From an uncultured Pseudomonadota bacterium (GTDB lineage Bacteria > BMS3Abin14), in the NCBI GenBank assembly GCA_964454175.1, contig CAYVSA010000017.1, positions 1-22,872 of the forward strand: 22,872 nucleotides of DNA, given 5' to 3'. Shown here one piece after another: positions 399 through 2,144 of the stretch (positions are counted from its first letter, which is position 1; each line of letters starts with the position of its first letter). A program made the translations under genes and the position numbers. Under the pieces are notes generated by a model. It was not told where the DNA came from. It made no database searches and saw only the letters and a program-made list of their open reading frames with translations.

Positions 399-578
399 TT
401 AATCTTTCAGCTTACGGTCATATTTACGGGGCACTTTGAACTGAACAGCCGATAAAAGCTTCTCAGGCCCGGTCTTGCCGCACTCGGGGCACTCGAGCCC
501 GGAGCCGTCATCATCCTTGCTGATCATAGCCTCAAATTCCTTTTTACATTTGGCGCATTTGAAATCGTAGATGGGCAT
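399..578 (-). CDS. Second FmdB-family zinc-ribbon protein (59 aa)
   Basis: [16 protein letters not shown]...CPECG. Start moved from 659 to the ATG at 578, which follows a GAGGTG RBS. Tandem paralog of 161-385 with a basic tail and a TAA stop. Confidence 0.88.
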
Positions 579-668: not shown

Positions 669-1592
669 CTATTCCTGAAGATACCTGTAAGCGTAAATAG
701 CAGCGGTTACTCCGTCTCCCACAGCAGTGGCGATCTGCCGAACTGATTGTTCACGGACATCACCGACAGCAAACAGACCTGGGACGGAAGTGGCCATTGT
801 CAGGTCAGTTGCTATGTAACCTCCCTCGGCCTTGTCGATCATGTCTCCCAGGAAGGACGACTGGGGTGTTATCCCAACGTAGATGAAAATACCGTCAACG
901 GCAAGTTCCCTGGTTTTGCCGGTTTTAACGTCCTCCAGCAGAACAGCGCTGACTTCATCCGCGCCCTTGATCTCCTTCACAGTGGAGTTCCACTGAAACT
1001 TTATCCTGTCGTTTGCTTCTGCCCTCTCCCTTGATATAGGAGTCGCCCTGAGTTCGTCTCTTCGGTGGATAATGTGTACGGTGCTGGCAAAACGGGTGAG
1101 AAATAGCGCCTCTTCGACGGCCGAATCGCCGCCACCGACTACAGCAACAGTCTTTTCCCTGTAGAGCGCGCCGTCACAGGTTGCACAGTATGATACTCCG
1201 CGCCCGGCGAGTTTTTCTTCTCCAGGTACTCCCAGCTTGTTTGGATCGGCGCCGGTAGAAACAATGACTGTTCGTGTGCGGATATCACCCTCACTGGTGT
1301 CGAGAACGAATAATTCGCCGTCTTTCCTTGCGGCGCTCACTTCTGCAGTCCGGACCTGGAGACCGTAGGCATCCGTCTGCTTCCGCATGAGATCGGCAAG
1401 TTCAAAGCCGCCGATACCCTCCGGGAACCCGGGATAGTTCTCAACGAGAAAGGTTGTGAGCATCTGGCCACCATGTGCGGCTTTTTCCAGCAGAAGAACG
1501 TCCAGTTTTGCCCTGGCTGCATAAAGTCCAGCCGAAAGGCCCCCCGGGCCTCCGCCGATTATTACCAGATCGTGTGTCATTTCCTTGGCCAT
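669..1592 (-). CDS. trxB: Thioredoxin-disulfide reductase
   Basis: FAD motif IIGGGPGG, redox centre GVSYCATCDG, NADPH motif VVGGGDSA, HRRD, and C-terminal TSVPGLFAVGDV...RQIATAVGDG; 307 aa. Confidence 0.96.
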   Translation of the reverse strand: MAKEMTHDLVIIGGGPGGLSAGLYAARAKLDVLLLEKAAHGGQMLTTFLVENYPGFPEGIGGFELADLMRKQTDAYGLQVRTAEVSAARKDGELFVLDTSEGDIRTRTVIVSTGADPNKLGVPGEEKLAGRGVSYCATCDGALYREKTVAVVGGGDSAVEEALFLTRFASTVHIIHRRDELRATPISRERAEANDRIKFQWNSTVKEIKGADEVSAVLLEDVKTGKTRELAVDGIFIYVGITPQSSFLGDMIDKAEGGYIATDLTMATSVPGLFAVGDVREQSVRQIATAVGDGVTAAIYAYRYLQE

Positions 1593-1635: not shown

Positions 1636-1666
1636 GTTCCAACTTCACACGGAAGTCAGCATGAAC
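1636..1666 (-). promoter_or_regulatory. Candidate bacterial SECIS hairpin for the UGA at 1670-1668
   Basis: UGA-A-GUUC-AUGC-UGACUUC-CGUGU-GAAGUUG-GAAC: 4-bp lower stem, bulge, then a 7-bp upper stem with two G-U pairs. The CGUGU loop starts 16 nt after the UGA and nearly matches the CGUGA loop at 145-149. Confidence 0.55.
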
Positions 1667-1742
1667 TTCAGCCGCCTCCTCCACCGGAAAACAAGAGAAG
1701 AAGAGCGGCGACAATAAGGATGAAAATTCCCAACCCGTGCAT
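1656..1742 (-). CDS. Unannotated micro-ORF: putative membrane-anchored selenopeptide MHGLGIFILIVAALLLLFSGGGGG-U-SSC (28 aa)
   Basis: The ATG overlaps the upstream gene's stop (TGATG, 1744-1740). It encodes a hydrophobic stretch, a Gly5 linker and an in-frame TGA (1670-1668) followed by Ser-Ser-Cys-TGA. A SECIS-like hairpin lies downstream. Confidence 0.55.
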
Positions 1743-2134
1743 CAGATGCCAGCCTTTCTGTGTTCCTTGAGAATACAGCGGTCCATAACTACATCCATCC
1801 CGGCATCTTTGCAAAGCTTTTCGGCTTCGTCGTTAATAACGCCTTCCTGGAGCCAGAGGACCCTGGCGCCGATATCAACTGCCTCCTCGGCGATGGGAAG
1901 TACTGTGTCTGACCGGCGGAAAACGTCGACGATCTCCACTGGGAAGGGGATGTCCTTAAGAGACCCATACGCTTTTTCCCCCAGGATCTCTTCAGTGCCG
2001 GGGCGTACAGGAACAATGCGGTAACCCATCGACTGCATGTACCTGGCGACCCCATGACTTGGTCTGTCGGGCCTTGGCGAAAGGCCGACAACAGCAATGG
2101 TGCGGTAGGTTTTCAGTATCTGTTCAATATCCAA
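1742..2134 (-). CDS. CoA-binding domain protein (YccU-like), about 130 aa
   Basis: IAVVGLSPRPDRPSHGVARYM...ILGEKAYGSL...VDVFRRS...LWLQEGV...VVMDRCILKEH. The likely start is TTG at 2134, preceded by AAGGAG; the ORF-track extension to 2485 is antisense to a real gene. Confidence 0.92.
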   Translation of the reverse strand: MDIEQILKTYRTIAVVGLSPRPDRPSHGVARYMQSMGYRIVPVRPGTEEILGEKAYGSLKDIPFPVEIVDVFRRSDTVLPIAEEAVDIGARVLWLQEGVINDEAEKLCKDAGMDVVMDRCILKEHRKAGI

Positions 2135-2144
2135 TGGTCTCTCC

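Follow-up and report, generated by a model that had tools for sequence, protein, structure and literature searches.

In bacterial selenoprotein genes decoded through SelB, an in-frame UGA is followed by a hairpin, the bSECIS, which carries a G within the first two loop positions and lies 16-37 nt downstream of the UGA (PMC13188914, Fig. 2A). SELENOK and SELENOS combine an N-terminal membrane helix with a Gly-rich, unstructured cytoplasmic tail and a selenocysteine (Sec) near the C-terminus, as set out in PMC10650576; SELENOS, a protein of 189 aa, is further described there as having a resolving Cys, a selenenylsulfide bond, and Trx/TrxR as the proposed donor. DUF2933 genes, which provide a different point of comparison, occur in copA clusters (PMC8478169).

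The window, meaning the whole stretch of 22,872 nucleotides analysed here, holds between a CoA-binding protein gene and trxB a small conserved gene that is built like a bacterial selenoprotein gene. Judged from sequence comparison, its in-frame UGA is very probably read as Sec by way of SelB and a downstream hairpin. The features of the locus are the following:

1742..2140 (start approximate), minus strand: gene for a CoA-binding protein, PF13380, YccU/PH1109 type; its stop overlaps the start of the peptide gene
1656..1742, minus strand: putative selenopeptide gene, 28 codons plus stop, conserved in 39 copies
1668..1670, minus strand: in-frame TGA, putative selenocysteine 25; TGA in all copies, Cys at the matching position of four fused relatives
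1639..1659, minus strand: bacterial SECIS-type hairpin that overlaps the final stop, with its CGUGU loop at 1651-1647, 16 nt past the UGA
669..1592, minus strand: trxB, thioredoxin-disulfide reductase; TIGR01292 at 375.4 bits (cut-off 343.45)
399..578, minus strand: first FmdB-type zinc ribbon gene; TIGR02605 over its cut-off, and PF09723
167..385, minus strand: second FmdB-type zinc ribbon gene; PF09723 at 62.3 bits, ending in a Gly run, a Cys and a His tail

The peptide ORF occupies positions 1742-1659 of the minus strand, its ATG at 1742 and the final TGA of the CoA-binding gene having one A in common (TGATG). It consists of 24 sense codons followed by TGA (1670-1668), Ser-Ser-Cys and the stop (1658-1656). 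Its product would comprise a short N-terminus, one hydrophobic helix, a Gly5 linker and U-S-S-C. An earlier sequence-only reading had proposed this start/stop overlap, single helix, Gly5 stretch and UGA-S-S-C, all of which were confirmed on the sequence, and had regarded the gene as too short and too interrupted by UGA for gene callers; cut-off forms are indeed what the databases list (P0008, P0009, P0012). The mechanical ORF of the upstream CoA-binding gene runs from 2485 to 1742 on the minus strand (247 aa), and its real start is probably near 2140, because homology to CoA-binding proteins begins there. Among the 112 sites in the genome with the pattern TGA-N6-TGY-stop, an in-frame hydrophobic helix lies upstream of a single one (1/112), which is the peptide site.

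In total, 39 copies were found in three bacterial lineages; they are kin, and counts taken over them are non-independent. Within the window's own phylum (16 genomes), the CoA-binding gene is present in 11 genomes, with the peptide right behind it in 9/11, start and stop overlapping or adjacent, while at the remaining two loci the CoA-binding gene goes straight into trxB. No peptide copy was found in the other five genomes of this phylum. G001, G004 and G008 are near-complete, selA-positive relatives that gave no copy. A scan of a genome collection gave two real copies among the matches listed (120 loci), in records titled Deltaproteobacteria and Thermodesulfobacteriota; the other loci among those listed were discarded for want of a hydrophobic helix or a start. 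In the class of the Thermodesulfobacteriota record (G042), which constitutes the second lineage, a pattern admitting TGA, TGC or TGT at the Sec position matched 13/21 genomes, all with TGA and with no control matches. Since this pattern is partly circular, the remaining eight genomes were searched via the upstream anti-sigma gene, by which the locus was located in seven, each with a helix-Gly-TGA ORF (7/7), so that 20/21 genomes of the class carry a copy. The third lineage, the class of G041, has a helix-type copy in 10/77 genomes, among 16 pattern matches, a count based on the pattern.

DNA patterns and gene order were used because a six-frame profile search proved too insensitive, finding the L073 copy only at E 0.23 and missing the L142 copy; 23/39 copies were found with a pattern in which both the final stop and the Cys were required. 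One truncated member was the yield of a profile search across 1.84 billion representatives. Several other screens were set aside: the single match of a metagenome scan was judged a chance hit, and a 401-genome sample of one phylum gave 13 rows that are known copies and no clear further copy (partly judged by eye), its 17 new loci failing the helix test and its other rows being judged by eye. L213 was excluded, with a hydropathy of 2.1 and a weak hairpin at 37 nt. Two other phyla, with 151 genomes each, yielded 10 rows each, none helix-like by eye.

Across the family, the peptide measures 25-34 residues. The 15-residue mean hydropathy of the helix is 2.2-3.7 in 32/32 copies, a value that reflects hydropathy alone and doubles as a selection criterion, and the Gly linker is 2-5 residues long, usually with one Arg or Lys. 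Only Met1, one Gly, the Sec and the Cys are invariant among 26 aligned copies, the conservation of the helix sequence being limited to its hydrophobicity. The motif reads UGSC in 24/32 copies, and the Sec stands fourth from the C-terminus in 36/39, third in two and further in one. The UxxC motif named by the sequence-only reading is accordingly present in most copies, with a spacing that is not strict, as 2/39 have UxC. Tail variants were noted at L289, L290 and L291, between the anti-sigma gene and trxA, two of them with UxC and one with 11 residues added after the Cys.

The codon at the Sec position is TGA in 39/39 copies (32/32 plus the 7/7 located by synteny) and never TAA or TAG, while the terminal stop varies (TGA in 26 and TAA in 6 of 32 copies). 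The codons between them change synonymously: over the same 32 copies the Ser at +2 is written TCN 19 times and AGY 8 times, and the Cys as TGC in 25 and TGT in 7. Among the seven synteny-found copies, one ends in TAG, another continues through the hairpin for 11 codons beyond the Cys, and two have UxC, with the loop in both of these still 18-19 nt from the first UGA. Because this distance is held in the UxC copies and the final stop is variable, the hairpin is placed by the first UGA and not by the final stop. Had the first UGA been an ordinary stop, the product would be a membrane peptide of 24 residues, with the hairpin serving stability or termination, an explanation to which the frequency of TGA as the commonest stop of the genome (598/1169 long ORFs) and the truncated forms in databases lend some plausibility. 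It is nevertheless extremely improbable, given the constancy of TGA beside a varying second stop, the synonymous changes in the codons between, a hairpin positioned relative to the first UGA, the lack of a terminator-like site in a promoter and terminator scan that stayed at chance level at the locus, and the Cys at this very position in fused relatives.

The window hairpin has eight pairs, including G-U. Taken alone it is weak (z -0.18 to -0.81 against shuffles), its stem of -5.8 kcal/mol being among the family's weakest, and an Rfam search gave three sub-threshold matches and no family above threshold. It is judged more than chance because it belongs to the sole helix-bearing site of the 112 and because ORF, TGA and hairpin are conserved in relatives. 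Hairpins were examined with an own script applying the bSECIS constraints shown in PMC13188914 to 33 family sites, namely 32 peptides and one fused gene. At a threshold of -3 kcal/mol, a hairpin was present at 33/33 family sites versus 126/596 ordinary TGA stops, and at -7.5 kcal/mol at 29/33 versus 22/596, the window stem missing the strict value. In 10 aligned own-phylum sequences, 85% of cells are paired, compared with 36-53% for slid partners, and both sides change in 5/8 pairs; shuffles matched the covariation in 2-15/500 cases on four of five measures and in 65/500 on the fifth, figures that are inflated by kinship. The stem of the second lineage differs, with six pairs, a GGUC loop and little covariation. 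The stem-loop with CGUGU that had been noticed 16 nt after the UGA was thus recovered at 1659-1639, conserved in relatives and with covariation in its own phylum.

The hosts are also equipped for Sec insertion. The window's own genome (G000) encodes selB (363.6 bits), a selD with an in-frame TGA, and a tRNA-Sec over the cut-off; of selA, only the last 40 positions are present, at the end of contig C66 and just before selB, and this contig break accounts for the absence of selA from a PF03841 search of the genome. A full selA is present in 12/15 relatives, and 67/77 genomes of the third-lineage class have a selA match. Two carriers are without selA and selB matches, namely G002 (73% complete, also without a selD match) and G214 (selD with TGA), and both have tRNA-Sec. 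The presence of Sec machinery in the genome, on which the selenopeptide reading had been made to depend, is therefore borne out by selB, selD, tRNA-Sec and a contig-cut selA, and that reading stands, with ORF and hairpin conserved and TAA or TAG at the Sec position in 0/39 copies.

The genes around the peptide differ between lineages. In the own phylum, the order is CoA-binding gene, peptide, trxB (8/9; in the ninth the contig ends) and zinc ribbon. In the second lineage, it is ECF sigma, zf-HC2 anti-sigma, peptide, trxA (20/20), zinc ribbon and often a TlpA-like gene; the best NCBIfam match of the anti-sigma is RsrA, below cut-off, and such sigma/anti-sigma pairs control thiol-stress genes in Actinobacteria. 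In the third lineage, a zinc ribbon lies upstream in 9/10 and DUF302 downstream in 6/10, with no trxA or trxB homologue within about 1.5 kb on each side of the 10 copies. The FmdB-type ribbon, found within 2.2 kb on the same strand at 29/32 copies (two of the misses have short flanks), is the neighbour type common to all three lineages. In the window, the two ribbon genes stand in tandem after trxB, and the tail of the second echoes the peptide tail.

A selenium-sensing leader, in which the following gene (trxB, trxA or DUF302) is tuned by read-through or stalling at the UGA and the peptide itself is of little consequence, would be consistent with a thioredoxin-system gene coming immediately after it in two lineages and with the overlap of hairpin and final stop. 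However, the next gene begins anywhere from about 55 to 375 nt past the UGA, conservation of the hydrophobic helix, the charge asymmetry and the Cys is of the kind expected of a protein, and the tail persists on a soluble domain with Cys replacing Sec, all of which leaves a leader role with little probability.

Elsewhere in the window, an overlapping hgcA-like and hgcB-like pair was observed at 6143-4998 and 5001-4747 on the minus strand. The best NCBIfam matches are HgcA at 149.5 bits (cut-off 275) and HgcB at 84.5 (cut-off 99), both below cut-off; the hgcA-like protein contains NVWC-S-AGK, which we take to be a cap-helix-like motif, and the hgcB-like ferredoxin ends in Cys-Cys, so that these genes may be described as a divergent, mercury-methylation-like pair. 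The other genes between 3218 and 21019 are presumably housekeeping genes (purU-like, gatCAB, mtnA, glnE, ilvE, polA, aminotransferase).

As an alternative to redox exchange, the tail could chelate soft metals and metalloids such as Cu+, Hg2+ or As3+ at the membrane, which would make this selenoprotein the Sec counterpart of DUF2933-like copper-cluster microproteins. Both UxC and UxxC would bind such metals, DUF302 follows 6/10 third-lineage copies, and the family profile weakly retrieves proteins of 53-55 aa in which helix-RGGG-C-GSH is combined with a His-rich tail (E about 0.3). In the Atlas these proteins fall close to DUF2933 clusters (0.91), which is no more than a lead, and DUF2933 genes are themselves located in copA clusters (PMC8478169). 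Against this, the members are without the His tail, none of 11 has a DUF2933 match, the recurring neighbours are thioredoxin-system genes, loci with ORFs listed contain no metal pump, and the likeness to the look-alikes is short and of low complexity; chelation is accordingly unlikely, if not negligibly so. Separately, a single-helix protein of 56 aa that carries GGG-CC and a tail containing His, and that has no Pfam or NCBIfam match, is encoded at L192:1483-1653 (plus strand) in G004, and the gene before it presumably encodes a CsoR-type metal repressor.

The charge distribution of the 32 copies offers an indication of topology. Acidic residues occur in the first six positions in 25/32, basic residues in the seven positions before the Sec in 28/32, and acidic residues never there (0); the window's own peptide is without this asymmetry. 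Together with the soluble fused form described below, the bias suggests a cytoplasmic tail. The product of 25-34 residues would thus sit in the inner membrane, N-terminus outside, and its flexible, Gly-linked U-x(x)-C tail would face the cytoplasm. Selenenylsulfides can arise between a selenolate and a Cys three residues away, and the tail may cycle between selenolate/thiol and selenenylsulfide, a step held less firmly than the topology, with oxidation by peroxide, by disulfides or by cysteine partners from the same operon (the FmdB zinc ribbon, the CoA-binding protein). The oxidised tail would be re-reduced by thioredoxin, with TrxB upstream of thioredoxin. Reduction by a co-transcribed TrxB had been proposed from the window alone: trxB does adjoin 8/9 own-phylum copies, but this is specific to one lineage, and thioredoxin is the likelier reductant, since low-molecular-weight TrxB normally works through thioredoxin-fold partners and trxA replaces trxB in one lineage.

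Taken as a whole, the mechanism of a cytoplasm-facing Se/S redox handle without a fold, recycled by thioredoxin in a thiol-stress operon, is favoured by a modest balance of probability. The UxC variants speak against a fixed active-site geometry, and the lack of trxA and trxB homologues beside the 10 third-lineage copies counts against the thioredoxin mechanism. That lineage without a trx neighbour would also suit a selenoprotein acting independently of thioredoxin, whether within a membrane complex, as small subunit or redox sensor, or as a Se/S carrier, and single-helix microproteins often act on larger membrane proteins. Such a role has as little probability as that of a leader, given that the helix is conserved in hydrophobicity only and is replaced in the fused form.

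The fused form was encountered in a paralogous CoA-binding gene of G015 (L066:1456-1893, minus strand), which continues in frame into a Gly/Pro linker, a TGA, Met-Ser-Cys and a hairpin with a CGUGU loop. Of 58 proteins recovered in a database search, 44 have this C-terminal extension (P0002-P0007 and P0013-P0050 being CoA-binding proteins with the tail). Of these 44 fused clusters, 39 end exactly before the Sec position, four have Cys followed by M-x-C, and one is cut shorter; the 39 truncated and four Cys forms, as read from sequence, are the usual Sec/Cys signature. The Sec/Cys pair rests on this fused form, because profile and pattern searches for the membrane-anchored peptide gave no Cys form, bar weak look-alikes. 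The expectation of a conserved UGA or Cys at position 25 was thereby borne out for UGA (39/39), and for Cys in the four fused relatives, not in the membrane form. Fused genes were read at the DNA level in two cases only, L066 and the fused-type L064 (G015:C317). In L064 the Sec position is occupied by TGG and the tail is different and longer, so that it is possibly a decayed copy.

In a tree of 39 rows that includes 18 of the 44 fused proteins, the fused clade has a support of 100/99 and nests among the CoA-binding genes that precede the peptide (95/84), both under a midpoint root, a pattern compatible with the two neighbouring genes having fused and the membrane helix having been lost. Kinship of the fused form with the peptide is suggested by its tail, its hairpin and the tree. 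The model predicted for the Cys form is a soluble Rossmann domain of the YccU/PH1109 fold (TM-score about 0.85), in which the conserved Cys124 is followed by a helix at 125-139 and the tail is disordered. In Pfam the fused protein matches PF13380 only, and in NCBIfam a sub-threshold ligase model. Plasmid sequences, when searched, yielded nothing but ordinary CoA-binding proteins. CoA-binding proteins with a C-terminal helix and a U/C-M-x-C tail are thus a candidate second selenoprotein family, which databases annotate as truncated.

A more specific role, which is quite unlikely, would make the tail the catalytic half of a CoA counterpart of the glutaredoxin system. The YccU-type protein would bind CoA and use the conserved Cys close to its C-terminus, kept in 38/44 fused clusters, to form or capture mixed disulfides of CoA; the Sec/Cys tail, on the membrane peptide or fused, would resolve the CoA disulfides, and thioredoxin would recharge the tail. 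Against it, the CoA-binding gene and the peptide are paired only in the window's lineage, and the contact must be inter-subunit or need unfolding, since the model places a 15-residue helix between Cys124 and the tail. If true, it would provide a function for the long-orphan YccU/PH1109 family and indicate that a fold-less peptide of about 3 kDa can be a working selenoenzyme.

The peptide family is real and conserved and, apparently, undescribed. Eleven members had no Pfam or NCBIfam match near a cut-off, and Table 1 of the 2026 catalogue of 119 families (PMC13188914) contains no match for the peptide or for a CoA-binding domain with a Sec tail, in keeping with the initial failure to recognise a described family. 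The literature searched, which included part of BSepDB (PMC13326102) and had subscription papers and unpublished annotation outside its scope, holds no prior description of the family, and the literature on YccU and PH1109 yielded nothing relevant and no report of a selenoprotein form of this type. Two apparently uncatalogued selenoprotein architectures are therefore indicated, a membrane peptide consisting of hardly anything but an anchor and a Sec/Cys pair, and a CoA-binding domain to which a comparable tail is attached. At its length the peptide can be synthesised, allowing a direct test of a minimal scaffold for a Sec redox centre and of whether bacteria possess a SelK/SelS-like device, and the fusion is a testable lead for the uncharacterised YccU/PH1109 family. 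Methods that need known or Cys homologues would miss such microprotein families, the deep-Sep filter being one that requires them (PMC12013277).

Compared with bacterial SelB/bSECIS genes as presented in PMC13188914, the family shares the in-frame UGA, the hairpin with an early G 16-37 nt downstream, UxxC and Sec-competent hosts, and differs in its length of 25-34 residues, in having no folded catalytic domain and in a SECIS that lies mostly beyond the stop codon. The UGSC motif of 24/32 copies is shared with the UGSC selenoprotein NF041046 and with thioredoxin-fold UxxC proteins, but the peptide is too small for a thioredoxin fold and has no NCBIfam match near cut-off. As for the DUF2933-like microproteins (PF11666), the look-alikes share with the peptide a single helix followed by RGGG-C-G-S, whereas they have 53-56 aa, His-rich tails and a copper-cluster context; neither the peptide members nor the look-alikes themselves match PF11666 in Pfam. 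The upstream gene and the fused form share the fold and the conserved C-terminal Cys of YccU/PH1109 (PF13380; PDB 2DUW, 2D59/2D5A, 1IUK), to which the fused clade adds the helix and the U/C-M-x-C tail. SELENOK and SELENOS resemble the peptide in their single N-terminal helix, Gly-linked tail, Sec near the C-terminus and Cys partner, and the charge bias of the peptide fits, as a prediction, their type III topology with the tail in the cytoplasm. In contrast to them, the peptide is far shorter, has no extended Gly/Pro/basic-rich region and no Pfam sequence match, and its Sec, usually fourth from the end in place of their second- or third-from-end position, precedes its Cys. The peptide is not filed under SELENOK/SELENOS because it departs from two of their defining features, and the likeness is one of build and probably convergent.
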